This document shows, in pieces, positions 18,141-55,280 of a stretch of 64,000 nucleotides of DNA. The notes under the pieces were generated by a model that was not told the DNA's origin, did no database searches, and saw only the letters and a list, made by a program, of their open reading frames with translations. Source of the stretch: an uncultured Chloroflexia bacterium (GTDB taxonomy: Bacteria; Chloroflexota; Anaerolineae; CG2-30-64-16); assembly GCA_963810095.1 (NCBI GenBank), contig CAWEMM010000012.1, positions 690,496 through 754,495 on the forward strand. The letters run 5' to 3'. Made by a program: the position numbers and the translations under genes. How positions within the stretch are numbered: the stretch's first letter is position 1; each line of letters starts with the position of its first letter.

Positions 18141-18575
18141 ATGAAATCGACCGCAGAAGTCATCATCGACCGGCCCCGGGAAAAGGTGCTCGAACTGATT
18201 ATGGCGCCCGGCAATTTCGCCATGTGGCAGCCGGGCGTCAAGACGTTCCAGCTGCTCAGCGGGCAGCAGGGTTATCCCGGCGCCAAGGCGAAGGTGGTCA
18301 TCGAGACGCACGGGATCAAGCTCGAGATGACCGAAACGATCGTCGAGCGCAAGCTGCCCGACGTGTACACGCTGCGCTATGATGGCAAGGGCGTGAAGAA
18401 CGTGGTGGAGAACCGGTTCTACGAGGCCGGGCCGGGGCAGACCCGCTGGGTGATGACCAACACGCTCGACGTGAGCCTGATGATGGCGATGGCCGCGCCG
18501 GTCATCCACGATATCGTGACGAAGCAGAACGCCGAGTCGATGCGACGCTTTAAGGCGTGGGCGGAGGAGGGGTAG
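18141..18575 (+). CDS. SRPBCC family protein
   Basis: EVIIDRPREKV, WQPG, typical length. Confidence 0.8.
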   Translation: MKSTAEVIIDRPREKVLELIMAPGNFAMWQPGVKTFQLLSGQQGYPGAKAKVVIETHGIKLEMTETIVERKLPDVYTLRYDGKGVKNVVENRFYEAGPGQTRWVMTNTLDVSLMMAMAAPVIHDIVTKQNAESMRRFKAWAEEG

Positions 18576-18753: not shown

Positions 18754-19755
18754 TTGCCTGACGCACTTCACGCGCGACATCTGACACGTAAGGAACTGCT
18801 CAGGAGCGCCGGAGCGCTGGCCGTTGGGTCCTGGCTGGCGGCATGCGCGGGGGAGACCCCGGCCCCATCGCCAACCGGCGCGCCGGAGCCCGCTCCCGTC
18901 GCACAGGTTTCCACAACCCCAACGGGCGGAGCAACCATGCAGCCATGCGACAAGACCCTCAACATCGCGCATCGCGGCGCGCTGGCTCGCGCCCGAGAAC
19001 ACGCTTGCCGCGGCCCGCAAGGCTCTGGCGATCGGCGCGGACATGTGGGAGCTGGATGTGGCGATGTCGGGCGACGGGGAACTGTTCGTGGTACACGACG
19101 ATACGTTGGAGCGGACCTCGAACGCAGCTCAGGTCTTCCCCCAGCGCCGCCCGTGGTCGAACCACACCTTCACCCTGGCCGAGATCCGCAGCCTGGATTT
19201 TGGTTCCTGGTTCGTCGAGCAAGACCCGTTTAAGCAGATCCAGTCCGGGCAAGTGAGCGCTGCGGAACAAGCGGCCTACCGGGGTGAGCGCGCGCCACGC
19301 TGCGCGAGGCGCTGGTCTTTACGCGCGAGAACAACTGGCGGGTCAACGTGGAGCTGAAGGACCTGAGCGGCCTGCCGGGCGATGCCACGGTCGTTGAACG
19401 GACCGTGGAGCTGATTCGGGAATTGGGTATGGTCGAGCGGGTGCTGATTTCATCCTTCAATCACAGCTACCTGCCGCGCGTGAAGGTCGCCGACCCGCGC
19501 ATTGCCACAGGCGCGCTCGTCACCGATGCCGACCCCGACCCCCTGGCCCTGGTGCGCCGGCTGGGCAGCCAGGCGTACAATCCCCGCGTCACCGCGATCC
19601 GGCCCGACGCGATCCCCGCGCTGCGCGACGGCGGGTGCGATGTGTACATCTGGACGGTGAACGATGAGGCGATCATGCGCGGCCTGGTTGCCGCCCGGGC
19701 GAGCGGCATCTTCACCGATTTTCCACAGGTGCTGAAGCCCATCGTCGCGTGCTGA
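18754..19755 (+). CDS. Glycerophosphodiester phosphodiesterase lipoprotein; frameshifted
   Basis: IAHRG, APENTLAA, WELDV, HDDTLERTSN, ISSFNH, WTVND, IFTDFP; LAAC lipobox. Confidence 0.9.
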
Positions 19756-20588: not shown

Positions 20589-22127
<1,539 letters not shown>

Positions 22128-22128
<1 letters not shown>

Positions 22129-22727
22129 TAGTCCTTATTAAACGCGTTGGGCAATGCATCCGGATGCAGTTGGTCGGCGCTCCAGCGCGCTGGGTTACCC
22201 TGGATGTACTCCTCAATGCGGCGCAGCTCGCTCTCGTTGCGAATCACGTGCTCCCAGTAGTTGCGCTGCCAGAACCTCGCGCCCGGCATTTCGCGCAGCA
22301 GATTGACGGCCTTGGTCGTTTGGTATTTGTAGTATGCCACGATTTGACCCAACGTGGGCTGTAGGGGCGGGGTCTCCCCGCCCGGAGGGCCTGCGAGCGC
22401 GCATGGGAGCCTGGGCGGGGAGACCCCGCCCCTACAGGTGTTGGCGCAGGATGGGTTGTCGAGGATCACGATGTTCGCGTGGGTGTGATTGGGCATGACG
22501 ACGAATGTCGTGACGGCGACGTTCGGGAAACGGGCTGGGATCTGTGCCCAGTATTGAGACGCAATTTCGCCGCAGGCGTTGGGGATCATGACCCCGCAGT
22601 CGATGTTACCCAATGTGCATTCACGTTGGTGTGTACAGACGGTAACGAAATAGACGCCCGGCTGCGCATAATCGAACTGCGGTATGCGGATTGACCGGCG
22701 GTGCTGGGTGTCAGGGTCGTATGTCAT
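22128..22727 (-). CDS. rayT: REP-associated tyrosine transposase (RAYT, Y1 HUH)
   Basis: HRRSIR..FDY, YFVTVCT, VVMPNHTH, FWQRNYWEHVIRN, YIQGNP. Confidence 0.9.
22359..22437. repeat. REPIN: inverted GTAG-type REP pair inside the RAYT gene
   Basis: ctgtaggggcggggtctccccgccc (22359-22383) and its exact reverse complement (22413-22437). Confidence 0.9.
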
Positions 22728-22776
22728 CGGCAGTGGGGGCGCGGCGGCGTGAGCCGGTGGGTTGGGTAGGCATAGA

Positions 22777-23115
22777 TCAGTCTTCCGGCGCGTACTGAGC
22801 GCGGTCTTCGTGCAGCGCCGTCGCCTGATTCTCTTCCTGAAGCGGCACGAGGCGAACTTCGAGACGCGCCCCCAGGGCCTCCGCAACCTTGCGCAAGAAG
22901 GAGAGCGTCGGCGTCGAAGCGCCGCTCTCGAGGCGCGCGATGCCCGGCTGCTTCGTGCCCACCAGCTCGGCAAGCTGTTCTTGCGTTAGCCCCCGAAGGA
23001 TGCGCAGACGAGCAACCTGGTACGCCGGCTCCAGCTCGGCCAGTGCGGTCACGAATTGCGGGTCGCGCATCTGCTCGGCTTCCCATTCTTGCAGCGGCAG
23101 CAGCCTTCTCGACAT
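22777..23115 (-). CDS. HigA-like XRE HTH antitoxin
   Basis: RILRGLTQEQLAELVGTKQPGIARLESG..PTLSFLRKVAEALG. Confidence 0.85.
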   Translation of the reverse strand: MSRRLLPLQEWEAEQMRDPQFVTALAELEPAYQVARLRILRGLTQEQLAELVGTKQPGIARLESGASTPTLSFLRKVAEALGARLEVRLVPLQEENQATALHEDRAQYAPED

Positions 23116-23463
23116 CAGTCCTCCGTCAACTCCGCCATGCGTTTCTCGGCAGTGGCGATCTCCTCCGCCGGCGCCTTCCGTCCTTGCTTACGGTAGCCGT
23201 GCAACAACACGAAGGTCCGATCGACATGCGCGAAGTAGAAGATGCCGTTCGGACCCGGTCGCAGCTCCCAGAGCTTGGGATGCCCGCTGACCGGCCGTGC
23301 ATGGGGCATGCCGAGCAGAGTGCCAAACTCGCACAGGAGGCGGAACGCATTCTCGGCCTCCACCGCGTTCATGCGGCGGCAGCTTGCTCAGAAACTCGAC
23401 CAACGGGCTCCTGGCCCGCCGGTCGGTGTAGAACGCGATCCGCCATCGACGGTCGTCGGTCAA
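23115..23463 (-). CDS. RelE/HigB (Gp49-like) toxin; frameshifted
   Basis: WRIAFY..SPLVEFL, LGMPHARP, LWELR, FVLLHGYRKQ. Confidence 0.85.
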
Positions 23464-23475
23464 GGTGATGCACCT

Positions 23476-23504
23476 AATATAACGTCTTTGTTATACTAAG
23501 TCAA
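23476..23504 (-). promoter_or_regulatory. Sigma70 promoter of the TA operon with palindromic operator
   Basis: TTGACT-17 bp-TATATT on minus strand; inverted repeat tataac-N6-gttata at 23478-23495. Confidence 0.75.
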
Positions 23505-23608
23505 GACGCGCCACCAGGCGTTGACCACCGATTTGGAGTTCGTCGCGCAGGACGTCGGATTGCTTCCAGACCCTTTGTCCATGGCCGTAGGCTGGATGCG
23601 TCCTGCCC

Positions 23609-24284
23609 TTACCCGCGTTGCGCTGGCTGGTTTCTGCCGCTTCGAAGCTTATTCCTTTGCTCTATTAGGATTTGGCGGTTTAGCAACTCTAGTAGCTTTG
23701 TGGCACCAGCGATGTCGTTCTTCATTTCGTCGCAGTCTTGCCTTAGCGCGTCGACTTTGCCCTGCGCGGTACGCACTGCGGGCATAGGCTCGCGACGCAG
23801 GGCGAGCCATTTGTTGAGGTGATACGCGAGCCCAGCCGCACAAGCAATGGCGAGGGCTAACCACAGCACGGCATCTGTGGAGCCACCCTGTGCTACAGCA
23901 AGCAGAAACATAACCACCAAGCCAGCGCCAAACCCCAGAACAAACTTCGAAAGCCGGTCCTCTTCCAACTTCTGCTCAGCAAGCGCCTTTGCGGCTTCGG
24001 CCTCGGCGAGCGGGATTTCGCTCTCACGTCTGACGAGTTCGCCTTGCGTTCGCACGATAAAGTCTCTCCATTCTTCTTCCTCCTCCTTAACTTCTCTGCT
24101 CGTCCTGACCGAGAGGAGGCGCTCTATCGCAGCTTGCAGTGAGAGCAGGACCCGTCGCCCGTCAGCGTCCTCTTCGAACTTCTGCCAAATGTGGCAGTAC
24201 GAACACTCATAGTAGACTCGTTCGGCTTTGGGCTCAATCGGCGCGCCGCACTTGACGCACTGGTAAACAATCGTTGCGCTCATT
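23609..24284 (-). CDS. Hypothetical Zn-ribbon / coiled-coil / 2-TM membrane protein
   Basis: CVKC..CSYC, acidic coiled coil, two hydrophobic helices, C-terminal coiled coil; lower GC. Confidence 0.7.
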
Positions 24285-24414
24285 GTCCCTCTGATGCTGA
24301 TGCGATAAGCCGGCGCAAGAAACGGGCTTTGACGCACTTCCCGGCTCCAATGGTCAGCCCGCCAGTTTTGCCAAAGTCGCCTTCAACGAATGTCGATCTC
24401 AACGTGAAGGATAG

Positions 24415-25801
24415 CTACAAAAGCTTCCCTTCAAACGCCCGCTTCAGCACCGCCTGCCGCAGCCGCTCAGCGCGAGCCAGGTTGGCTTCGACACTCTCGT
24501 CTAGCGACCGAATCACGGACAATGCCCGTTCGACCTCCGCCACAATGCGATGCTGTTCCTGCAGGGGGGGTAAGGGAACGGCTAGGGGCCGTAGATCGCC
24601 GCATGTTCACATGAGGGGCCGCAGTGCCAGCTGATAAATGGACGATACTGAGTCCGAAAGATGGCCGAGTTCAAGACCTTCTCCAGATATGCTCCCAGCA
24701 GGGCCCTGCTCGGCCTGAAGATCATCATCCGTTGACCGAGGCAGAAGGGCAGGTCTTCGGGGACGCGACAGCGATTCCGAGCAAGCTCGCCTCGCGGCTG
24801 AAGATCATGTCTCCCGCCTCTGGCGTCATCCGACGATTCCGTTCAATGAAGATGTGCTCATCGACATAGCGTCCCCGTTCGACAATAATTCGCCCTGGCT
24901 CTATGCAGTTCGCGTCAACGCAGAGCGTGCCCCTCTCCTGGAACACCGGCGTGCTGTGAAGGCAATCGACAATGCGGTCAGACACCAGCTCAACACTTGC
25001 CCAGCACCACCCCGCCGGCAACTCCGGCAACCCCTCTACGTCCGGCCCTTCCGGCTCCACGTACTTCTTCCCCGGGTGCTCCGCCTCCCACTTCGCGCGG
25101 CGCTCGGCGAGGATGCGGCGCAGGAGGACGTCCGCCGGCTCGTCGTTCGGGTCCTGAGGGACGAGGCGACCTTCGCAGGCGGCTTTGAGGACGGCGGCGC
25201 GATAACGGCGGAGGTTGGCTTGGACGCGGCGCAGGGCACTAACTCGCCGGCTCCAGACCGGCTGAAATGCTGTTCGATCTCGGCGACGATCGCGCTGTTG
25301 ATCCTCGTAGGGCGGAAGTGGAATGAGCAAGGTCTTCAATGCTCGCGTTGTCGAAGATTATCGATGTTGATGCCCGACGACGCTTCGCTGAACGAGATGC
25401 GCTAACGGCGTGGAGCCGATAGCAGATAGCACCGAAGTGGGGATCAATCGCCGATCGACCTTCAGCCGACATGAAGCGTCCCGAGAGAGCCCGATCCAGC
25501 ACTGCTTGCAGCGAGCCGTCTTGCCCACTAGATGTCATTGCTGCCGCTGGACAATGCAGAGAACCACGTCGCACGGCCTCAGCATTGATGCGGCTTGCGA
25601 ACCGATTTGGCACGTAGACCAGGTGTTCCGTCCACGACGAGCCGATCATGCCTGCACGTTCGTGGCCCGGAGTGATCGGGGAATAGCCTTCTTGTCGGCG
25701 TTCCTCCGTGCCGACAACTCCGTCATAGCGTACGCCTCAGACGCCTCCAGCCGACCAGTCGCCAGTTGGCTGCCTGCAATCGCATTCGCCGAAGGCTTCA
25801 T
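24415..25801 (-). CDS. hsdS: Type I R-M specificity subunit; several frameshifts
   Basis: IPLPPYEDQQ, YRAAVLKAACEGRLVPQDPNDEPA, LPELPAGWCW, C-terminal LRQAVLKRAFEGKLL. Confidence 0.9.
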
Positions 25802-28618
25802 ACGTACCAGACGCCTCATTCAGCTCTTCCAGCAACTCGCGGCAGCTTCGCGCCCAAACTGCTTCTTCGCGCCCAGCCGCCCGCCCTTGTCGAAGAACTC
25901 GCCGTAATCGAAATCGTCCAGCGTCATCGCCAGGTTCAGGCCGATGTGGTCCACGATGCGATCGAGCCACCAGCGCTGCTGCTCCGTGAAACGCTGCCCC
26001 GCCGCCTCCTGCTCCCCCAGCCACGCTTCGTACCGCTGCCGCACGAGGCGGGGGTAAGGCACGAGCTCGTCGTCCAACTGCACAGCATGGCGCACGAGCG
26101 AGACGAGGTCGGTGAGCACCCGCTCCGATGCCGCGCCCTTGACCCGGTCCGCCTCGAGCTGGAGATACGCCAGCCACAGGCTCTCGGTGGTCCAGTTCGG
26201 GTGCGCAGCCGTGATCGCATCCGCCAACTGCTTGACCTGTTCGTACGTCAGCCGCTGCCGGCTGCGTGGCTCGTTGTAGATGATCTGCAGCGCCGTGATC
26301 TCGTCGCGGTGCTCCTCGATGAACTCCTTGAACGAGCGGACCGTGGCACGGGCCCGCTCGGTCGCTGCCTCGCTGAAGCCCGCCTCCAACACCCGGTCGA
26401 CGCTGACCCGGTCGATGGTTTGCTCCGACGCGGCGGTGGATGGCGATGAGCGCCGCGCGCAGGCCCGGCTTCATGAGCGGCGCGACGGCGGCCTCCGCCA
26501 GGGACTCGGCAGTCGCCGCAACCTCTTCGGGGCTCGGCTCGGTGCCAGGCGGGAGAGCCCGGCGAGCCGCTTCGACTGCCCGGTCCGGGTCCAGCGCATC
26601 GAGCAGCCCGTTCGCGAGGTCCTGCAGCGATGCGCCGCCGGACTGGGTCGCGATGTCCTGGCGGTCGGCCTCAGTCAGTATGCGCTCGAGCCGCGCGAGC
26701 CGGGCCGTCAAGCGAGGAAAGGGTGTCGGCGTCGGTCGCGCCCCAGGCGACCTGTTCGAGCAGCTTCTCGAACGATACCGTGCGTTTGCGCTCCAGGGTC
26801 TGCGTGTCGACCTTCTCCTGCTCGACCACGCCGACCGCATCGACGATGACGAAGCGGGTCTTCTCCCGGGCGTCGGGCGTGACGGCCTGGAGGTCCTCCG
26901 GGTTGATGATGCGGGTGCCCCGGCCCAGCATCTGCTCGAAGAGCACGCGCGACCTGACCGGCCGCATGAAGAGCAGGGCTTCGAGCGGCTTGATGTCGGT
27001 GCCGGTCGCAATCATGTCGACCGTGACCGCAATGCGGGGGAAGTAGGAGTTGCGGAACGAGTTGATCAGGTCCTCGGGCGAGACGCCGGAGACGCGATAG
27101 GTGATCTTCTGGCAGAAGTCGTTGCCCTTGCCAAACTCCTCGCGCACGATCCGGACGATGTCCTCGGCGTGGCTGTCGTCCTTCGCGAAGACGAGCGTCT
27201 TGGGCACCTCCGTGCGGCCGGGGAACAGGTCGGTGAAGAGCCGGTCGCGGAACGTGCGGACGACGGTGCGGATCTGGTCCATCGGCAACCACGTCGCGGT
27301 CGAGCTGGCTGCCCGCGTACGCGAAGTCCTCGTCCAGCCGCTCCCAGCGCACTGCCCGCGTCAGCCGGTCGCGGCGGTCCACGAAGTAGCCCGCATCGAC
27401 CTTGCTCCCGCCCTCGGTGATCTGCGTGCGGATGCGGTAGACCTCGCCGTCGACGTTCACCCCGTCAGCCACGGCCCGGGTGCGGGGGTATTCCATCACC
27501 AGGTTGCCGTTGAAGAAACCGAGGGTCTGCTTCGAAGGCGTGGCGGTCAGGCCGACGAGGTGCGCGTCGAAGTACTCGAGCACCTGTCGCCACAGGTTGT
27601 AGATCGACCGGTGACACTCGTCGGTGAAGATCACGTCGAAGTACTCGACCGGCACGCGAGGGTTATAGGAGACGGTGACGGGCGGGCCGCTCAGGGCGGC
27701 CTCCATGTCAAACCACGAGCGCTCCTCCGCTTCCGGGTCGAGCTCTTCGCCCGTCAGGATCGAGTAGAGCCGCTGGATGGTGGTGATGCACACCCGGCTC
27801 ACCGGGTCGAGGACGCTCGAAGTCAGGCGCTGGACGTTGTACAGCTCGGTGAACTTGCGGCCGTCGTCCGGCGTGACGTACTGCTGGAACTCCTTCAGCG
27901 TCTGGCGGCCCAGGTTGCTGCGGTCGACGAGGAAGAGCACCCGTCGCGCGCCCGCGTGCTTGATCAGGCGATAGACGGCGCTGACCGCAGTGTAGGTCTT
28001 GCCCGAGCCGGTGGCCATCTGGACGAGCGAGCGGGGCCGGTCCGCCGCGAGCGAGCCCTCGAGGTTGTGGATCGCCTCGATCTGCGCGCCCCATAGGCCC
28101 GTCGTCAGTAGGGGCGGAGACCCGTCGGCCGACGGACCCCCGCCCAACTCGCGCAGGCGGGTGCGCAGCGTAGGAGGCGGAGCAAGCAAGCCAGGGCGCC
28201 CGGCGCCCACCCATTCGGCAAGCGTTTCGGGGCGGTGAAAGGCGAAGACGCGGCGGCTGCGCGGCTCCGGGTCCAGGCAGTTGGTGAAGAAGGTCTCGAC
28301 CCCCGAGCTTTCATAGAGGAAGGGCAACGGCCGGGTCCATGCCTTGAGCGACGTGGGCAGGCCCGCCCCGTAGCTTGCCGACTGCGACTCGATGCCGCTG
28401 AGCGGCGTGCCGGCGGCCTTGGCCTCGATCGCGCCCGCGGCCTTCCTGTCGACGAAGAGAAGGTAGTCGGCGAAGCCGGTGGTGAGCGGAAACTCCCGGA
28501 TGGCTACCCCGCGAGCAGCGGTCAGGTCGGATTCGGCGCGGTCCTGAACGGCCCAGCCGGCCGCGGCGAGCGCGCGGTCGATGAGCGTTGCCCGGGTGCC
28601 GGCTTCGGAGAGAGTCAT
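25798..28618 (-). CDS. hsdR: Type I R-M restriction subunit (EcoAI/EcoEI-like); frameshifted
   Basis: ADYLLFV..IEAKA, MATGSGKT, FLVDR, DECHRS, GLTATP, EQMLGRGTR. Confidence 0.95.
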
Positions 28619-28875: not shown

Positions 28876-29529
28876 GTGGCCGACGGCCATCCCATCAAGT
28901 CATGTTGGAGATCTGCATTGCGGGATAATCAATACGCCACCATCGCCGCCACGTTCGATGAACTCATCCGACGGCTGCAGGAATATGGGGACGCGTTCCC
29001 ACCGCCCGGGTGCAAGGGCATCCGGTTTGCATTTCCAGATCAGATGTACGTCTTTGACTCCGGGCCGTCCGGGGGTTGGACCGCAACCGCCCACTGCTAC
29101 TCCCGCTGGGAGACCAACGAGCCGCTCTTCCTGGTCGTCGGGCATGAAGCCAAGGCGAGCTGCCGCGTCCGCACGCGCTGCGTCGAACCGCGCATCAAGG
29201 GCTGGTTTGAGGTCATGCTGGACTGGCTCGCGCCTAAATGGGATACAGACGAGGTTCAGCCACTGCCCGCCGTGCCCTTGATCGGCGCGACCGCCCCCGT
29301 CCTTCCGGTCGAGCCTGAGCCCGGCGCGCCGCCCAAACGCCGTCGCGGCCCCAAGCCGGGTAAAACGCCCGAAGAGATGGAGGCCATCTGCGTCGAATGG
29401 CTGGAGAAGGCGCAATTTGTCGACGAGATGTGGCTCTTCTGCGACAAGCACCGTATCTCAGAAGATGCACTCAAAAAGGCGCTGCGCGCACGAGAAGAGC
29501 GTATAAAGAAGGGACTGCCTCCGATCTAA
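28876..29529 (+). CDS. Hypothetical protein with probable C-terminal HTH
   Basis: Pro-rich linker, then KRRRGPKPG and a helical ISEDALKKAL segment. Confidence 0.55.
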   Translation: MADGHPIKSCWRSALRDNQYATIAATFDELIRRLQEYGDAFPPPGCKGIRFAFPDQMYVFDSGPSGGWTATAHCYSRWETNEPLFLVVGHEAKASCRVRTRCVEPRIKGWFEVMLDWLAPKWDTDEVQPLPAVPLIGATAPVLPVEPEPGAPPKRRRGPKPGKTPEEMEAICVEWLEKAQFVDEMWLFCDKHRISEDALKKALRAREERIKKGLPPI

Positions 29530-29573
29530 AACGAAATAGCAGCGAAACTCGAAGGAAATAGCAGTGGAATTAT

Positions 29574-29618
29574 CCGCCTCCGGTGGCCTACAGTGAGGGC
29601 CAAGGGAGGCGGTTTTTT
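29574..29618 (+). terminator. Hairpin + T6 abutting the rep start codon, with the GGAGG SD inside the stem
   Basis: ccgcctcc(29574-81)...ggaggcgg(29605-12) tttttt ATG. Confidence 0.6.
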
Positions 29619-31187
29619 ATGTCCGACACACCGGCATCGCCCGGCTTCACCCGTATCGACAACCGGGTCATCACGGAGCACGCGCCGCGCATCGGCGCGC
29701 ACGCGCTGGCGGTCTACGCCGTCCTGGCGCTGCACGCGCACAACATTACCCGGCAGTGCTATCCGTCGACCCGGACCATCAGCCGGCTGTCGAAGCTCAG
29801 CCGGCCAACGGTGCTGAAGGCAATCGAGAAACTAGAGGAGGAAGGATTGATCAGGATCGAGCGAAAGCGGACGAAAGGCGGCAAGCCCCTAGTGAATGTC
29901 TACACGCTGCTGCCGGTAGGTCACACCGGTATACCGACAAAGGTCAAGCAGGTTGACCAAGTAGGTCAAGGAGCTTTACCAGAACAAGACTTAATTAACA
30001 AGACTAAGGAGAACTATGCCGCGGGCACCCAGCCGGCACCGGGGATAGATCCCGATCCGGATCACCCTGCCGTCGCAGCTTACCAGGCACGCTTCCGGCT
30101 GAAGCCGAACCGGGCGCAGGCCGAGGCGATCGCGGCGACGGTGTCCGACCTGGCCGCCTGGGACGAGGTGCTGCGGCTCTGGGAGCTGCGGGACTACCGG
30201 ACCTCGAACGTCGAAGGTCTGCTCGACCGGTACCTGAAGGAGATGTCGGGGAGGAACGGCAGGAATGGGAACCATGCAGGCAGTTGGGGGAATCCGCGCA
30301 GTAGGCGACCTGGTTGCCAGGGCGATGGCGACGGCGAGCGGCGAGCATACCGGTCAGAAACTCCTGAGGAGGCCGCCCGACGAGACGCCGAGTGGGAGGC
30401 CCTGGTTAGAGACTCCCTGCCGGCAGGGACTCCCTCGGCAGGGACTCCCTCGGCAGAGAATCCCGAACAAGGAGTGCAGGCGGTGATTCATAACCTGATT
30501 CCGATCGACAGGCGGCCCGAAGTGGTGTGCCCTCTCTGCAAGGACAAGGCGTTCGTGCAGATGGACGTGCCCTACGGACACCCGATGTTCGGCAAGCTGA
30601 TCCCGTGCCCTCAGTGCAGCCAGGCCAACCAGCAGCAGCTCCTGGTTTCAGCCTGCGGGCTCACGGTCGAGAAGCTGGGCTGGACGTTCGCCAACACGAT
30701 GCGCCGGCCCGAGCTCGCAGAGGTGTACGACACGGCGCTGGCCCTGGCCGGGAAGCCCCGCCGCTTCCTGACCCTCCAAGGGGAGCCTGGCGTCGGCAAG
30801 ACCCGGTTCCTGGCTTGCATCATCAATGAAGCCGTTGCGAAAGGGTTCACGGCCGTCTATATGACCATGCCCGACCTTTTGGATTACCTGCGCACCGGCT
30901 ACGCACCGAACGCGGCCACAACCTATGATGCGCGCTGGCAGCCGCTGATAGACGCCCGCGTGCTGTGCATCGACGAGATCGACCGGTACAGCCCGACGCC
31001 ATGGGCCGAGCAGAAAGTCTTCCAGTTGATCAACGCCCGGTACGAGAACGGGCAGGACCACCTGACGTGCTTTGCGTTGAACGCAGCAATTGACACGCTG
31101 CCCGATTACCTGCAGAGCCGCCTCCGGGACCGCCAGTGTTACCTGTTCCACCTGGCCGGCCAGGACGTGCGGCAGCGGAAGCGTTGA
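29619..31187 (+). CDS. Phage-type replication initiator (wHTH + DnaD-like) in frame with DnaC/IstB-like helicase-loader ATPase
   Basis: FTRIDN, CYPS.RTI..LSRPTVLKAIEKLEEEGLI; CPLC..CPQC, Walker A GEPGVGKT, Walker B LCIDEID, FQLINARY, SRL. Confidence 0.85.
   Translation: MSDTPASPGFTRIDNRVITEHAPRIGAHALAVYAVLALHAHNITRQCYPSTRTISRLSKLSRPTVLKAIEKLEEEGLIRIERKRTKGGKPLVNVYTLLPVGHTGIPTKVKQVDQVGQGALPEQDLINKTKENYAAGTQPAPGIDPDPDHPAVAAYQARFRLKPNRAQAEAIAATVSDLAAWDEVLRLWELRDYRTSNVEGLLDRYLKEMSGRNGRNGNHAGSWGNPRSRRPGCQGDGDGERRAYRSETPEEAARRDAEWEALVRDSLPAGTPSAGTPSAENPEQGVQAVIHNLIPIDRRPEVVCPLCKDKAFVQMDVPYGHPMFGKLIPCPQCSQANQQQLLVSACGLTVEKLGWTFANTMRRPELAEVYDTALALAGKPRRFLTLQGEPGVGKTRFLACIINEAVAKGFTAVYMTMPDLLDYLRTGYAPNAATTYDARWQPLIDARVLCIDEIDRYSPTPWAEQKVFQLINARYENGQDHLTCFALNAAIDTLPDYLQSRLRDRQCYLFHLAGQDVRQRKR
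29915..30005. promoter_or_regulatory. Putative replication origin inside the initiator gene
   Basis: Repeated aggtca/ttgacc motifs followed by AT-rich acaagacttaattaacaagact, placed after the HTH as in lambdoid origins. Confidence 0.45.
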
Positions 31188-31200
31188 GGGGAGGAATAAC

Positions 31201-31617
31201 ATGGCTGCTTCGAGCAATACCACGTGGTCGAAGGGGTTCAGCGAGAACCCGTACGGGCTGGCGAGAGGCGACGTTGGGCTGGCCGAGATGGTCCGCCAGG
31301 TGGCCGGCGAGTGGCTCGTCTATCCAGCCGGCAACGATGGTGACTTGCACATGAGCCGGCAAGAAGCCCTGGTGCGCACGCTTTGGACCCGGGCCGTGAT
31401 CGATGGCGACATGACGGCCATCAAGCTTCTGGTGGAGCTGCTGGAGGGCAAGGGCGCCGGGACCGGCGAGGCCGGCGGCGCCGTGCTCACCGCCGACGAC
31501 CTGGCCCGGGCCGAGGCGGCGCTCCTCGCCTGGGCCGACGAGCACCTTCTGCCCGAGACCGGGACGGCGGCCGGCGACGACCAGCCGGCGCAGGAGGGGC
31601 GCGACGATGGACGATAA
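31201..31617 (+). CDS. DUF5681-like terminase small subunit
   Basis: WSKGFSENPYG (cf. FKKGQSGNPxG), EALVRTLWTRA..GDMTAIKLLVE; SD ggagg; overlaps TerL. Confidence 0.65.
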   Translation: MAASSNTTWSKGFSENPYGLARGDVGLAEMVRQVAGEWLVYPAGNDGDLHMSRQEALVRTLWTRAVIDGDMTAIKLLVELLEGKGAGTGEAGGAVLTADDLARAEAALLAWADEHLLPETGTAAGDDQPAQEGRDDGR

Positions 31618-33138
31618 CCTCGATTCGGGTGCGCTCTGGCTGGCGTGCTCGAGGTCGCCGGCCTTTTTCCTCGACCGCTGCGGCTATCTCTATGACCCGA
31701 CGGGGCGGCCGGGCGAGGCGGGTGGCTGGCGGCGCTTTCGCCTCTGGCCCAGCCAGGTGCGGGCGATGGAGACGCTGGCGGCCAACCCGCGATGCGTGAT
31801 GCTCAAGGCCCGCCAGCTCGGCATGAGTTGGCTGACCGTCGGATTCGCCCTGTGGCTCATGCTGTTCCGCCCGGCCGCCACGGTGCTGCTCTTCTCCAAG
31901 CGCGACGACGAGGCGGTGCACCTGCTCAGCTTCCGCCTGCGGGGCATGTACGACCGCCTGCCCCGCCCGCTGCAGGCCGCCGCCATCGTCCGGGACAACG
32001 CGCACGAGTTCCGCCTGTCCAACGGGTCGGCGGCGTTGGCGTTCCCAACCACGGGCGGGCGGTCCTACACGGCCAGCCTGGCGATCGTGGACGAGGCCGA
32101 CTTTGTCGGCGGGGCCGCCGGCGACGACCTGGACAGCCTGCTCAACGCGGTCAAGCCGACCGTGGACGCGGGCGGGCGGCTGATCCTGCTCTCCACGGTC
32201 GACAAGTCCCGCCCGGAATCCGCCTTCAAGCGCATCTACCGGGCGGCGGCCAGCCGCCGGAACGGGGCCGCCGGGGGCGGGTGGGCGCCCATCTTCCTGC
32301 CCTGGGACGCCCGCCCCGGCCGGACGCTCCAATGGTACGCGGAGCAGGCGGACGACGTGCGGGCGCGCACCGGCGGGCTCGACGACCTGTACCAGGAGTA
32401 CCCGGCGACCGAGGCCGAGGCGCTGGCCCCCCGGGCGGTCGACAAGATCTTCCGGGCCGAGTGGCTGGCCGCCTGCTACAAGCCGCTCGTGTGGCCGGGC
32501 CAGTTGCCCAAGAAGTACGCGAGCCGCGCCAGCCCTTGCCCGAGCTGCCGCAGGCCATCATCCACGTTCCGCCTGCACCGGGCAGGTATTACGTGATCGG
32601 GGCCGACCCAGCCGAAGGCAACCCCGAGTCGGACGAGAGCGCGGCGGTCGTGCTGGATGCGATCACGGGCGAGCAGGCCGCAACATTGGGCGAGCGGGCC
32701 GATCCTGCCCGCTTCGCCGACCACTTGAACGTGCTCGGCCGCTTCTACAACGACGCGGCGGTCATGGTCGAGCGCAACAACCACGGCCATGCGGTGCTGT
32801 TGCGGCTGCGGGAGACGACGATGCTCAACGTGCTGCGGGGGCTCGACAAGGAGCCAGGCTGGATGACGACGGGCGCGAGCAAGCCAGTAGCCTTCGACCA
32901 TGCCGCCGCAACCATCCGGGAAGGCGGCCTCGCCCTGCACGATGAGACGACGTATTTCCAGATGGCGTCGGTGGACGGCAACACGCTGAAGGCGCCGCCG
33001 GGGCAGCACGACGACCGAGCCATGGCGGTGGTGCTGGCACTCGCGGCGCTCAAGTGGTGCAGCGTCATCAGCTGCGGCGCGAGCGTGATGATTCCGCCAA
33101 GGGACTGGCTGTGGGAGGCGGACCACGGTCCCTGGTGA
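31607..33138 (+). CDS. terL: Terminase large subunit; one frameshift near 32520
   Basis: LWPSQ, Walker A KARQLGMS, Walker B IVDEA, LLST; nuclease YVIGADPAEG, VERNNHG, HDDRAMA. Confidence 0.9.
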
Positions 33139-33160: not shown

Positions 33161-33187
33161 GTAGGGGCGGGCGGTGTGCCCGCCCCT
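33161..33187 (+). repeat. Single GTAG-type REP between convergent genes
   Basis: gtaggggcgggc-ggtgt-gcccgcccct. Confidence 0.6.
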
Positions 33188-33261: not shown

Positions 33262-33834
33262 TTATGCGGCGTCCGCCGCCTCGCCGCCTGCCATGAATGC
33301 CGGGTGAAAAGCCACCCTGCCCTCCGGCATGCGTGCGGCCGAAGACGCCGCGGAATCGAAAGCCAGGGCGAAGAAGGCCTCCGGTGGCACACCTTCAACC
33401 ACCAGTCCCGCCGGGTTTTTGAACCCGAACCTCGGGTAGTAACTCGGGTGCCCCACCAGCACGCACCCACGGGCGCCCAGCGCCTTCAGGCGCGCGAGGC
33501 CCTCCCAAATGAGGGCCTCGCCGATTCCCTGCCGCTGGTGCGCGGGCAACACCGAAACAGGCCCAAGGCCATACCAGCCCGCCGTGCCGTCCGAAATGGT
33601 GACGGGAGAAAAGGCGATATGTCCGACCAGCCGGCCGTGCAGCTCAGCGACAAGCGACACGGTGAGCGCGTTGTCGGCGCGCAGCGCGGCGACGATGAAC
33701 TGCTCTGTCTGGCTGCTGATCTCCAATGTCTCGAACGCCTCAACAGTCACTGCAGTGATGGCGCTGGCATCCGCCTCGGTTTCGTCCCGGATAACGAGGC
33801 CAGGAATCAGGGGTGTCGCGTTTCGGTCTCCCAT
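33262..33834 (-). CDS. GNAT acetyltransferase (YhbS-like)
   Basis: LVGHIAFSPV, LGPVSVLPAHQRQGIG, VLVGHPSYYPRFGF. Confidence 0.9.
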   Translation of the reverse strand: MGDRNATPLIPGLVIRDETEADASAITAVTVEAFETLEISSQTEQFIVAALRADNALTVSLVAELHGRLVGHIAFSPVTISDGTAGWYGLGPVSVLPAHQRQGIGEALIWEGLARLKALGARGCVLVGHPSYYPRFGFKNPAGLVVEGVPPEAFFALAFDSAASSAARMPEGRVAFHPAFMAGGEAADAA

Positions 33835-33842
33835 GCTAATCC

Positions 33843-34851
33843 TTACCCGCTCGCCGCCACGGCGGCTGCAAAGCGAGCGTTTGCTTCCCGGAGGCTGCTC
33901 TCGGCCTCCACACCGCGCGCCAGGGACCACGCCACCAGGTCGAACAGCGCCTGGCCCAGCACTTCGGGCGTCAGGGGCTCGCCGGGCCCCAGGTTCTCCA
34001 GCGGCGCCCAGGGGTGGGCGGGGGGCGTGCTCGCCCGCAGGCGCGGCTCGTCCGACTTTACGAGGCGCGACATGCGATCCAGGTACGACTCGGCCTGGGC
34101 CAATGCGGGCAAACCCTTGGGCACGCCCGACAGCGGCGATTTCTTCTCCGGCGTCGAGTCCGCCCCGCTCTTGGCCCGCTCGGCCGCCTTGATCGCCTCC
34201 CAGTTCGCCAGCACCTCATCCGTCCCGCTCACGGCCACCTCGCCGAACACATGCGGGTGGCGCCGGATCAGCTTCTCCACGATATGGCGCACGACCTCGG
34301 GGAAGCGGTAGTCGCCTTCCTCCGTCGCGATCTGCGCCTGGAGCGAGATCTGCAGGAGCAGGTCGCCCTCTTCCTCCAGCACCTTGTGGGGGTCGCCCTG
34401 ATCCAGCGCGTCGAGCAACTCGTAGGTCTCTTCGAGCAGGAAGGGGCGCAGCTTGTCCCACGTCAGTTCGCGATCCCACGGGCAGCCGTCCGGCGCGCGC
34501 AGCCGCGCAGAGATGTTCTGCAGCGCAGAGTAGGAGCCGGGATAAGGCAGGGGCGGCACATAGAGGGCCGTCGCGCCGAGACCGTCTGCCAGGTCCGAAA
34601 GCGGCACCGCCTGCGCCGCGCTCGCGCACGACCTGTACCCCGTGGCCGCCCGGATACGCTTGCAGCAACACCTGGCGGATGCGCGCAGCGTCGGCTCCGG
34701 ACAGATTCAGCACCAGGACCGGGCTGGAGGGGTCGAACAAGGGGTAGTACTGCTCTGCCAGCGCCGCAGCGTCGATCAACTGCAGGGTATCTAGCGACGG
34801 CGACCCCAGGAGCTCGAGCGCCGCCGTCACTTCACTCATTACAATGGTCAT
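33843..34851 (-). CDS. mazG: MazG nucleoside triphosphate pyrophosphohydrolase (YabN-like); frameshifted
   Basis: LRAPDGCPWDRE, EETYELLDA, EEEGDLLLQ, KLIRRHPHVFG, WEAIKAAE. Confidence 0.9.
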
Positions 34852-34941
34852 GCTTCACGCCTCCGGCCCCGATTATACTCGACGGCCCGGTCCCGACGAA
34901 TGAAGCGGCGAGTTCAAACACGGGATGCCGGCGCCCGTAGC

Positions 34942-36508: not shown

Positions 36509-37282
36509 ATGTATCCGCTTCCAGTCGCATTGCAGCTTTATTCGATCCGTGACATCCTCAGCCAGGGGTACGAGGCCGGCGTGCGTCGCGTCGCCCAGAT
36601 GGGCTATGCCGGCGTCGAAACGGCAGGCTTTCCGGGCACCACCCCCCAGGCTGCGGCCAAACTTTTCGGCGAGCTTGGCCTGACCGTTTGCTCGGCCCAC
36701 AGTGCGCTGCCCCTCGGCGACAAGAAGAACGAGGTGCTTGACACGATGGCGGCCATCGGCTGCAAGCGGATCGTCCTGGCCTGGCTCAATGAGGACCAGT
36801 TCACCAGCCTCGAGGGCATCTACCGTGCGGCAGACATGCTGAACGCGGGCGCGACAGTCGCACACGAGCACGGCCTGACCGTCGGCTACCACAACCACTG
36901 GCAGGAGTTCAACCTGGTCGAAGGCCGGCCCGCATACGAGCACATGCTGGAACGGCTCGACCCCGAGGTGTTTTGGGAACTGGACACCTACTGGGCCATG
37001 GTTGCCGAGCACCGGCCCGAAGATGTGATCGCCAAGCTGGGCCACCGGGCGTCCCTGCTGCACCTCAAGGACGGGCCCGGCACCCGGCAGGACCCCATGA
37101 GCGCGGTGGGCGACGGCGTGCAGGACTGGCCCCCGATCCTGGCCGCCGGCGAGCAGTATGCCGAGTGGCTCATCGTCGAAATTGATCGTGCGGCCGGCGA
37201 CATGATGACCGCCGTCGAGCGGAGCTACCGCTACATCTTGGCGAAAGGGTGGGGGCATGGCGCAGTCAGCGGCAGGGCTTAG
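36509..37282 (+). CDS. Sugar phosphate isomerase/epimerase (xylose isomerase-like TIM barrel)
   Basis: LQLYSIR, GYHNHWQEF, ELDTYW, LHLKDG, IVEID. Confidence 0.85.
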   Translation: MYPLPVALQLYSIRDILSQGYEAGVRRVAQMGYAGVETAGFPGTTPQAAAKLFGELGLTVCSAHSALPLGDKKNEVLDTMAAIGCKRIVLAWLNEDQFTSLEGIYRAADMLNAGATVAHEHGLTVGYHNHWQEFNLVEGRPAYEHMLERLDPEVFWELDTYWAMVAEHRPEDVIAKLGHRASLLHLKDGPGTRQDPMSAVGDGVQDWPPILAAGEQYAEWLIVEIDRAAGDMMTAVERSYRYILAKGWGHGAVSGRA

Positions 37283-38355
37283 GGTCGGCATCATCGGCTG
37301 CGGCAACATCAGCGGCATCTACATGAAGAACTGCCGGACGCTGCCCGGCCTCCAGTTGGTCGCCTGCGCCGACATGGTGCAAGAGCGGGCCGAGGCGAAG
37401 GCCCGGGAGCACGGCATCCACGCGCTGCCGGTCGACGCGCTGATCCAGAGCCCGGAGATCGACCTGGTCATCAACCTCACCATCCCCGGCGCGCACGGCG
37501 TGGTCGACGGCGCCGCGCTCGAAGCGGGCAAGCACGTCTACGCCGAGAAGCCGCTGGCCATCACCCGGGCCGACGGCGCGGCGATCCTGGCGCTGGCCGG
37601 CGCCAAGGGGCTGCGGGTGGGCAGCGCGCCCGACACGTTCCTCGGGTGCGGGGCTGCAGACCTGCGGCCGCCTCATCGACGAGGGCGTAATCGGCGAGCC
37701 GGTGGCTGCAGTCGCGTTCATGGCGGGCCACGGGCCCGAGAGCTGGCACCCCGACCCGGCCTTCTTCTACAGAAAGGGCGCGGGACCCATGTTCGATATG
37801 GGCCCGTATTACCTGACCGCACTCATCAGCATGCTCGGGCCGGTCGCCCGGGTTTCGGGCACTGCCCGCAAGTCCTTCCCCGAGCGGATCGCGACGAGCG
37901 AAGCCCGGCGGGGCGAACGGTTGCCGGTTGAGGTGTCGACGCACTACGCGGCCACATTGGACTTCGCGTCCGGCCCGGTGGCCACGCTGATGATGAGCTT
38001 CGACGTGTGGGCGCACAATCTTCCGCGCATCGAGGTTTACGGCTCGGAGGGCAGCTTGAGCGTGCCCGACCCGAACACCTTTGGCGGCGTCGTGCGCGTG
38101 AAGCTGGCGAAGGACGAAGCGTGGCGCGAGGTTCCGCTGACGCACCCGCACAGTGAGAACAGTCGCGGGCTGGGCGTCTCGGACATGGCGCTGGCGATTG
38201 TCGAGGGCCGGCCGCACCGGGCCAGCGGCGAGCTGGCGCTGCATGTCCTGGACCTGATGGAGTCCGTGCAGGAAGCGTCCGAGTCGGGGCAGTACGTGCA
38301 GGTAAGGACGACCTGTCCCCGGCCCGCCGCCATGCCCGACACGGTGGCAGGATAG
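37257..38355 (+). CDS. Gfo/Idh/MocA oxidoreductase; frameshifted
   Basis: GIIGCGNIS, YAEKP, GSAPDTFLG, GPESWHPDP, DMGPYY. Confidence 0.9.
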
Positions 38356-55208: not shown

Positions 55209-55280
55209 AGCGGGTAACGGGATTCGAACCCGTGACATTCTGCTTGGAAGGCAGACGCTCTACCCCTGAGCTACACCCGC
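55209..55280 (-). tRNA. tRNA-Gly(TCC), CCA not encoded
   Basis: gcgggtgtagctcaggggtagagcg tctgc cttccaa gcaga atgtcacgg gttcgaatc ccgttacccgct folds as a cloverleaf. Confidence 0.95.

Follow-up and report, generated by a model that had tools for sequence, protein, structure and literature searches.

The stretch of DNA analysed here, referred to as the window, comprises 64,000 nucleotides from an uncultured member of the Chloroflexota class Anaerolineae (positions 690496-754495 of contig C12), and lies at the end of this 754-kb contig in the source genome, G000, an assembly of 6.13 Mb in 16 contigs with 65% GC and 88.5% completeness. At 28876-33138 of the window there is a compact cassette of five co-oriented genes on the + strand: orf1, rep, a gene for a DnaC/DnaI-like helicase loader, a DUF5681 gene, and terL, which encodes a large terminase subunit (TerL). 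An initial annotation, made from the sequence alone, had described a co-oriented module for replication and packaging at this place, and all genes are indeed on the + strand. As set out below, the cassette is not a one-off remnant but a self-contained replication and packaging unit with relatives in other genomes. Genes were called by hand from third-position GC content (GC3) and open frames. Other G numbers denote relatives of the source genome, C numbers contigs and L numbers extracted loci.

Replication and packaging genes of the cassette

The cassette and the repeats in and beside it contain the following features, in window positions.

28876-29529, + strand: orf1, 217 aa, or 203 aa from the ATG at 28918
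29530-29569: pair of 18-nt direct repeats in the orf1-rep gap (22 nt apart), a candidate for an operator or for iterons
29583-31187, + strand: Rep/DnaC open reading frame (ORF), 534 aa as assembled; winged-helix initiator in the N-terminal part, AAA+ loader in the C-terminal part
29583-30493, + strand: rep, winged-helix replication initiator, HTH_36/DnaD_N-like; reads on into dnaC in the window
29941-29981: two 19-nt iteron-like repeats, GGTCAAGnAGnTTnACC, 22 nt apart, in rep after the DNA-binding domain; candidate origin
30411-30464: 3.5 tandem copies of a 15-nt repeat where rep and dnaC meet; holds a 2-nt length difference
30483-31187, + strand: DnaC/DnaI-like AAA+ loader with an N-terminal CxxC...CxxC zinc motif
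31198-31617, + strand (true start about 31198): DUF5681 protein, 139 aa, small terminase candidate
31607-32535, + strand: terL, ATPase domain; frame valid to about 32491, open to 32596
32492-32535: terL frame-change interval, 44 nt, one-base shift, in the variable linker between the domains
32536-33138, + strand (start approximate): terL, RNase H-like nuclease domain, in the other frame
33164-33186: GC-rich hairpin, 26 nt after the terL stop; terminator-like

Rep and the loader follow the pattern of a winged-helix initiator and then an AAA+ loader, as in phage pairs of an O/DnaD-type with a DnaC/P-type protein. The rep part matched HTH_36 in Pfam (E 7e-12), DnaD_N weakly, and replication initiation in PHROG; the loader matched IstB_IS21 (E 5.5e-10) and AAA in Pfam, the DnaC-like helicase loader of PHROG (E 6.5e-24) and, by sequence, IstB, DnaI and DnaC in the PDB. 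The initiator and DnaC genes of the initial annotation were thus borne out. The fusion of the two into one protein, however, is doubtful. Short-read contigs (low-depth, from four runs of public sediment metagenomes) match the cassette in pieces at identities of at least 99%, and one of them is 2 nt shorter at 30419, within the 15-nt tandem repeat. In this shorter variant rep stops at the TAA at 30491-30493 and two ORFs result, as in G003, a relative of the same genus. Because the variant separates the ORFs and matches G003, Rep and DnaC are probably encoded by two genes, the second of which would probably start at the GTG at 30483, 8 nt after AAGGAG. With the single Rep/DnaC protein as query, no relative was found in IMG/VR or in metagenome contigs by pattern-based scans, which find close relatives only. 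A tandem pair of DnaC/DnaI-like genes, approximately 37% identical to the cassette loader, is present elsewhere on the chromosome (G000:C6:611247-612516) and at one locus in each of 40 relatives; it was found in nearly every genome of the class that was searched and is presumably the host's own helicase loader pair.

An internal origin, considered likely in the initial annotation, is suggested by the iteron-like repeats before and within rep. The 19-nt motif also occurs twice at the same position of rep in G004 (L022 1252-1314, reverse strand), while rep of G003 has a different repeat pair at the corresponding place. Each pair has two copies only, and the 19-nt pair lies within coding sequence; the repeats are candidate iterons, and the origin is a candidate too.

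The first gene of the cassette had been taken for a helix-turn-helix (HTH) protein, a claim without family support, as orf1 matched zero families in Pfam, PHROG and PADLOC. Its AF2 model (pLDDT 74) contains an alpha/beta domain and three C-terminal helices, and gave no Foldseek match in the PDB at E<=1e-3; there was no hit of 0.9 or above in the ESM Atlas. orf1 is nevertheless the conserved first gene of this type of cassette, found at the same position in G003 (32% identity) and G004 (39%), and a word-indexed search of 5.8 billion proteins returned one further homologue (60%).

The DUF5681 protein is a candidate small terminase subunit (TerS) by position and family. It matched DUF5681 in Pfam at E 1.2e-7, the stop codon of its gene overlaps the start of terL by 11 nt, and the family recurs directly upstream of TerL both in loci with a portal gene and in the portal-less, or orphan, loci described below. 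There was no PHROG hit and no PDB profile hit, and the AF2 model, of low confidence (pLDDT 62), gave weak fold hits only (E>=0.035), a TerS and DUF5681 phage proteins among them, and none at E<=1e-3. The TerS gene of the initial annotation is a candidate that fits in position, overlap with terL and protein family.

TerL matched PHROG TerL families down to E 5e-15, and Terminase_6C at E 1e-3, a score of 19.5 bits that is under the Pfam cut-off of 22.6; the orthologue from G003 had no sequence match in the PDB. In agreement with the initial annotation, the ATPase motifs LKARQLGMS (Walker A), IVDEAD (Walker B) and LLSTVDK (C-motif) and the nuclease motifs GADPAEGNP, VERNNHGH and HDDR are intact, and all six are identical or near-identical between orphan and portal-linked relatives. 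The two domains lie in different frames in the window. terL is likewise frameshifted in L162 and L164, and it is intact in G003, L161, L163, L253, L254 and L257. A short-read contig piece spans 32527-32682 without a gap, whereas the rest of the frame-change interval is without shown coverage.

The frameshift has to be seen against the quality of the assembly. In the region of C14 that contains rpoB and rpoC (G000:C14:146935-155374), rpoB has at least one frame change and rpoC at least four, together with in-frame TGA codons. Since these genes are essential and cannot be pseudogenes, the assembly must carry indel errors, which fits 88.5% completeness in just 16 contigs. Near the cassette, the genes for a GDPD protein (18785-19752), HsdR (25823-28618, two frame changes) and a GFO/IDH/MocA protein (37209-38352) are also split. 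A single shift in 4.3 kb is within this error load, and because the same assembly breaks rpoB, rpoC and hsdR the terL frameshift cannot be trusted. A genuine frameshift had been named in the initial annotation as a sign of a simple remnant; the one seen here is in an assembly in which rpoB and rpoC are broken as well. With frame changes even in essential genes, pseudogene calls in G000 need read-level support.

At the right end of the cassette the initial annotation had placed a repetitive extragenic palindromic (REP) element. The structure there is a single GC-rich hairpin, and assignment to a REP family was rejected, as even a loose form of the motif occurs just 4 times in 6.13 Mb.

Portal-less TerL relatives and head-only clusters

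Conservation of the gene order in relatives had been proposed as a check of the module, and it was found in two congeners. In G003 (L020 7966-12977) the order orf1-rep-dnaC-DUF5681-terL is identical and terL is intact; identity to the window is 43% for rep, 42% for the loader, 50% for the DUF5681 protein and 72% and 61% for the two TerL domains, in addition to the 32% of orf1. This cassette has a GntR/FCD regulator on one side and a convergent oxidoreductase gene on the other, and its locus has no counterpart in G000. In G004, a 3.9-kb contig (C56, L022) has hsdR divergent from orf1-rep-loader-DUF5681, which continue up to the contig end; the hsdR-orf1 junction is common to the window and G004, and HsdR is 87% identical at the amino acid level. 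Contig G397:C147 was rejected as an independent example, being the same DNA as G003:C5. The two agree over 12.7 kb at 99.85%, host flanks included, in bins that are placed in different genera, and the sharing probably reflects a mis-binned contig or one population binned twice. The G003 locus also contains three tandem copies of an 88-nt unit between the loader and DUF5681 genes (L020 10635-10898) and three GGGCGGGG(N3)CCCCGCCC palindromes between DUF5681 and terL (L020 11261-11373), and the window has a related stretch of 80 nt at 22359-22443.

TerL relatives are frequent both in phage data and in genomes. In IMG/VR, 593 of 600 pattern matches encode a TerL relative, the best 80 reaching at most 56% identity, and in contigs from one genome per species the figure was 344 of 380. 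There was a TerL match in 14 of the 401 genomes of the class that were sampled (including the unpublished G362), and in seven of the eight genomes of the genus. Among 62 ORFs downstream of TerL in the genome loci, 31 match PHROG portal families and 3 match head protease or major capsid protein (MCP) families; tblastn revealed five more TerL loci with a portal.

The TerL of the window belongs to a different group. Six portal-less TerLs (from the window, G003, L161, L162, L163 and L164) form a single clade, with an SH-like support of 99 in a FastTree tree of 158 rows, from which six duplicate loci and five short fragments had been left out, and 100/100 in an IQ-TREE PMSF tree of 32 rows; the sequences in the trees were derived by tblastn and carry X at frame breaks. 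In the ATPase domain, the window TerL is 72-76% identical to the orphan TerLs. A metagenome scan with a three-row TerL alignment added L253, L254, L257 and two short contigs, which gave an enlarged clade of 11 rows (SH-aLRT 95 in a quick IQ-TREE run with 45 rows). No portal-linked TerL was found inside the clade among the 158 + 13 rows. All eight members with at least 1.4 kb of downstream sequence are portal-less and run into host genes, while the other three are on short contigs. Apart from the window, the genes downstream of terL in the resolved members are as follows.

G003 (L020): oxidoreductase
G301:C79 (L161/L053): CDGSH protein
G002:C3 (L162): beta-lactamase/PD40 protein
G004:C520 (L164): thioesterase, phosphofructokinase
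L253 (metagenome): serine dehydratase, enolase-superfamily enzyme, fucosidase
L254 (metagenome): alpha/beta hydrolases
L257 (metagenome): PrimPol-D5 helicase, then host genes

Within the genus, four of eight genomes (G000, G002, G003 and G004) have an orphan, and its location differs from one genome to the next. The clade reaches deep (path lengths of 0.5-1.0 substitutions per site), and TerL has evolved under purifying selection. By the Nei-Gojobori method, dN/dS between the window and five clade members is 0.24-0.34 for the ATPase domain and 0.29-0.37 for the nuclease domain, among L161, L162 and L163 it is 0.17-0.39, and against a portal-linked paralogue 0.43; since GC3 exceeds 0.9, which restricts synonymous change, the values are overestimates if anything. 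Relaxed selection on terL, which the initial annotation had linked to a simple remnant, was thus not what we observed.

Three unrelated kinds of replication module lie beside the orphan TerLs:

Rep + DnaC-like loader: window, G003, G004:C56
DnaG-type primase/helicase, divergent: G002
PrimPol-D5 helicase: L257

Restriction genes also adjoin several of the loci:

Type I restriction: window, G004
GmrSD + type IIG restriction: L161
Type III Res: L163 (PADLOC E 4e-115)

L164 adjoins a cI-type HTH regulator, and in four of the eight resolved members there is no restriction gene in the examined flanks.

Two further portal-less or rearranged arrangements were seen in the trees. L258, a metagenome contig of 4467 nt, is sister to the orphan clade. 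Upstream of its DUF5681-TerL pair lies an inverted portal gene, separated from the pair by a DUF4397 gene, and the arrangement may represent a rearranged intermediate. A second, separate portal-less clade (support 100) consists of L193, L194 (the same as L061, G318:C146 3721-7192), L195 and L208, and in all four rows terL is followed by a gene for a 613-aa dynamin-family protein that matches the PADLOC LeoBC/LeoA models.

The nearest portal-linked TerLs are encoded in clusters of approximately nine genes, which we call head-only clusters and which are flanked by host genes. Their order is DUF5681, TerL, portal (phrog_10963), a small ORF, a protease-MCP fusion, a 132-aa ORF, an SU10-type adaptor and two more genes. 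The orphan clade is nested among the TerLs of these clusters (96/98, IQ-TREE PMSF). The initial annotation had held that a remnant would have its closest homologues in complete prophages; the nearest TerLs are portal-less instead, and the next are in head-only clusters. It had also suggested looking for capsid and portal loci elsewhere in the genome, and G000 does have a head-only cluster of its own at C7:499966-509213 (L007 5967-15214, minus strand), between a fatty-acid desaturase and a major facilitator superfamily (MFS) transporter, with a TerL approximately 63% identical to that of the cassette. Several of the clusters occupy the same locus in different genomes. L054 and L189 lie between ribosomal protein L9 with a TMEM260-like gene and, at the opposite end, a Na/Ca exchanger, L055 has the same upstream neighbours up to the end of its contig, and L175 and L184 share on one side an ABC-F ATPase and GNATs; L248-L252 are further head-only clusters, and the small genes of such clusters number three or four. 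No tail, integrase, regulator or replication genes were seen in the flanks that were examined, and PF05065 and PF10145 had zero matches anywhere in G000. Within the genus, head-only clusters are found in G000, G001, G005 (two) and G006 (two), G000 being the only genome with both a cluster and an orphan, and in family f1 both are held by G301. The head-only clusters look like gene transfer agents (GTAs) or like cf-PICIs, the capsid-forming type of phage-inducible chromosomal islands, which are discussed below.

A variable island at the locus

The window from 18.6 to 33.85 kb is a 15-kb variable island, since its flanks abut in the congener G001, where the SRPBCC gene (window 18177-18566) directly adjoins mazG (window 33855-34857), and since G007 has another 8 kb of unrelated genes between the counterparts of these two. 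The island contains genes for GDPD, a GNAT, hsdM, a HigBA-like pair, hsdS, hsdR, the cassette and a second GNAT. The latter, at 33262-33930, is the convergent gene at the right edge of the cassette that had been annotated as a host gene, and it lies inside the island. As the GNAT gene at one end of the island is not related to that at the other, a target duplication was rejected.

The neighbour on the left of the cassette is the divergent type I restriction-modification (R-M) operon of the initial annotation, in which hsdM, hsdS and hsdR could all be confirmed, with hsdR divergent from orf1.

20767-28618, - strand: type I R-M operon; hsdM 20767-22134, hsdS from 24725, hsdR 25823-28618 in three frames

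Between hsdM and hsdS the operon includes the HigBA-like pair (Gp49/HigB-like and HTH_3, 22780-23387), which is followed at 23400-24700 by a stretch of low GC (0.58) with ORFs that matched zero families in Pfam, PHROGs and PADLOC.

Phage genes other than those of the cassette were sought around it with Pfam, PHROGs and, for the portal, tblastn with one portal sequence. No portal, capsid, tail, lysis or integrase family was present in the ORFs from 16 to 49 kb of the window. The tyrosine integrase PF00589 has 14 matches in G000 and zero on contig C12, and the resolvase PF00239 has zero matches in G000. There are no direct repeats of at least 13 nt flanking the cassette or the island, and no broken structural, lysis or integration genes in the 15-kb island or beside the seven other resolved clade members. 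The picture of a minimal element with neither portal, capsid and integrase, nor attachment (att) sites, nor decayed structural genes was thus upheld, and it recurs in relatives as a unit rather than as a random remnant. Elsewhere in the window, the sole tRNA is a tRNA-Gly(TCC) gene (55209-55280, minus strand), and the last 9 kb have few long ORFs.

Possible roles of the cassette

We suggest that the cassette could be a working, or very recent, member of a phage-derived lineage that keeps only replication and packaging genes, an integrase-less, satellite-like element that depends on capsids supplied in trans. We put this forward tentatively, with somewhat less than even confidence, as it is built on gene content, trees and substitution rates. 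The single portal-less origin, the long constraint, the fixed right end at the terL stop, the changing loci and the exchangeable replication module argue for a maintained element and against debris.

Upon a signal, for instance when a related phage infects the cell or a resident head-only cluster is expressed, Rep would bind the iterons in or beside its own gene and the DnaC-like loader would recruit the host helicase, thereby over-replicating the locus. The DUF5681 protein, as small terminase, would mark the element DNA, and TerL would cut it and dock on procapsids made in trans, likely those of the sister-TerL lineage with the phrog_10963 portal and the protease-MCP fusion. The sister head-only clusters are a possible source of capsids. 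The element would be packaged together with neighbouring DNA and, having no integrase, would become established in a new cell by homologous recombination through flanking chromosomal DNA, which would fit both its position in a variable island between conserved genes and the restriction systems moving along with it. In-situ amplification, with packaging of the adjoining DNA, would be compatible with the lack of excision genes, the iteron-like repeats and the adjoining restriction systems.

Several observations weigh against such an element. Of the five genomes that bear an orphan, a head-only cluster is present in two (G000 and G301), and none was found in G002, G003 and G004, at 84, 89 and 76% completeness. 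TerS is assigned by position and DUF family alone. terL is frameshifted in the window, its 44-nt interval only partly covered by short reads, and a frameshift is also present in L164, from an assembly of many contigs, so some copies may be decaying; several of the compared loci come from fragmentary or error-prone metagenome-assembled genomes. In G004, an exact tandem duplication of 59 nt (L022 1352-1469) disrupts the frame of rep. dN/dS is 0.53-0.80 for dnaC and 0.39-0.65 for orf1, which are weakly constrained or saturated. No free-form viral or metagenome contig came out of the scan with the single Rep/DnaC protein or of the scans with TerL. Finally, the element lies at changing loci although it has no recombinase, which the reading would have to account for.

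For the comparison with known systems, we used the definitions of PICIs and cf-PICIs in de Sousa et al. (2023; PMC10085698). Like a PICI or a Staphylococcus aureus pathogenicity island (SaPI), the cassette is a compact chromosomal element with its own initiator module, a small-terminase-type gene, no capsid or tail genes and an interchangeable replication module, and the proposed dependence on capsids made by another element would add to the likeness. It thus has the replication module of a PICI, but no integrase on the whole contig and no flanking repeats of at least 13 nt as attachment sites, and it carries both terminase genes where PICIs carry terS and not terL. The same paper names TerL, the head-tail adaptor and the connector as the components that set cf-PICIs apart (PMC10085698). 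The cassette shares TerL and TerS with cf-PICIs but is without capsid, portal, adaptor, connector and integrase, whereas the sister head-only clusters resemble the packaging and head module of a cf-PICI but have no int, regulator or rep gene in the examined flanks. PICMIs, the minimalist satellites of Vibrionaceae, have a similarly small gene content without capsid-remodelling genes; in the part of their description that was available, a TerL-bearing form without an integrase does not appear.

The Bartonella GTA amplifies a chromosomal region by run-off replication from an origin derived from a phage; capsids whose genes are elsewhere in the genome take up the amplified DNA, and the system, at a fixed locus, is passed on vertically. 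The orphan cassettes, on the contrary, contain no structural genes and lie at different loci in the congeners G000, G002, G003 and G004, and in this they depart from a GTA in the sense of a vertically inherited structural cluster at a fixed locus.

According to one report (PMC12829572), lateral transduction mobilises defence islands that lie next to phage and PICI sites. Lateral transduction combines in-situ replication, an in-situ terminase cut and headful packaging into the adjacent chromosome, and the cassette likewise adjoins R-M genes. The elements known to do this are complete prophages or PICIs, and they excise as well; the cassette has no excision machinery. A bolder version of our proposal, which we regard as doubtful, extends this principle: the element would be a hitch-hiker that never excises and consists of replicon, TerS and TerL only. 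It would over-replicate in place, cut its own pac site, fill the capsids of head-only clusters or related phages and move itself and the adjoining restriction or defence island by built-in lateral transduction, the transferred DNA being fixed by homologous recombination.

An unlikely alternative to a maintained satellite-like element is that the loci are inert prophage remnants of one phage lineage that look alike because deletions tend to end at the same points. TerL belongs to a genuine phage family, as seen from the IMG/VR matches and the many downstream portals; the frameshifts in the window, L162 and L164 and the broken rep of G004 would be expected of remnants, and the elements lie in variable islands, where debris collects. 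On the other hand, head genes are absent from all eight resolved members, in each of which the phage genes end with terL, the motifs are intact and dN/dS is low throughout a clade of this depth, not one portal-linked TerL falls within it, and the assembly of the window breaks essential genes too.

Still less likely, in our view, is an anti-phage module acting by packaging interference. On infection its own replicon would amplify the terminase pair, which would mis-cut, or compete for, concatemers or procapsids of the invader, and the module would be kept in defence islands for that purpose. Satellites are known to interfere with helper packaging, restriction genes adjoin several members, and the second portal-less clade has a LeoBC/LeoA-type dynamin-like protein downstream in each of its four rows. 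However, no model of PADLOC 2.0 matches orf1, the DUF5681 protein or TerL, and the DnaC part gave a weak DrmD AAA hit only; half of the resolved members have no restriction gene in the examined flanks, and any mobile element at a hotspot would also be expected to lie next to defence genes.

The least probable explanation is a dispersed, domesticated gene-transfer system, in which head-only clusters would make the capsids and orphan loci would choose the region to be amplified and packaged: the host-flanked clusters shared between genomes (L054/L189/L055 and L175/L184), the presence of both kinds of locus in G000 and G301 and the nesting of the orphan clade among head-cluster TerLs would agree with it, but the orphan loci are not syntenic among congeners, three of the five orphan genomes show no head cluster, and genes for tail, lysis or regulation did not turn up, with zero matches to PF10145 and PF05065 in G000.

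In the literature that we searched, which covered few subscription journals, we found no description of such an element, of an orphan terminase or of a GTA in Anaerolineae. To our knowledge, satellites described so far either borrow the TerL of their helper (PICI, P4, PLE) or bring a whole head of their own (cf-PICI), and an integrase is present in nearly all of them. Whether these bacteria possess a GTA-like system is a separate question, prompted by the head-only clusters at syntenic loci. If the satellite-like reading of the cassette is true, a lineage that keeps exactly a replicon and both terminase subunits would be a new solution to hitch-hiking, and it could explain how defence islands move in this poorly studied class of Chloroflexota.

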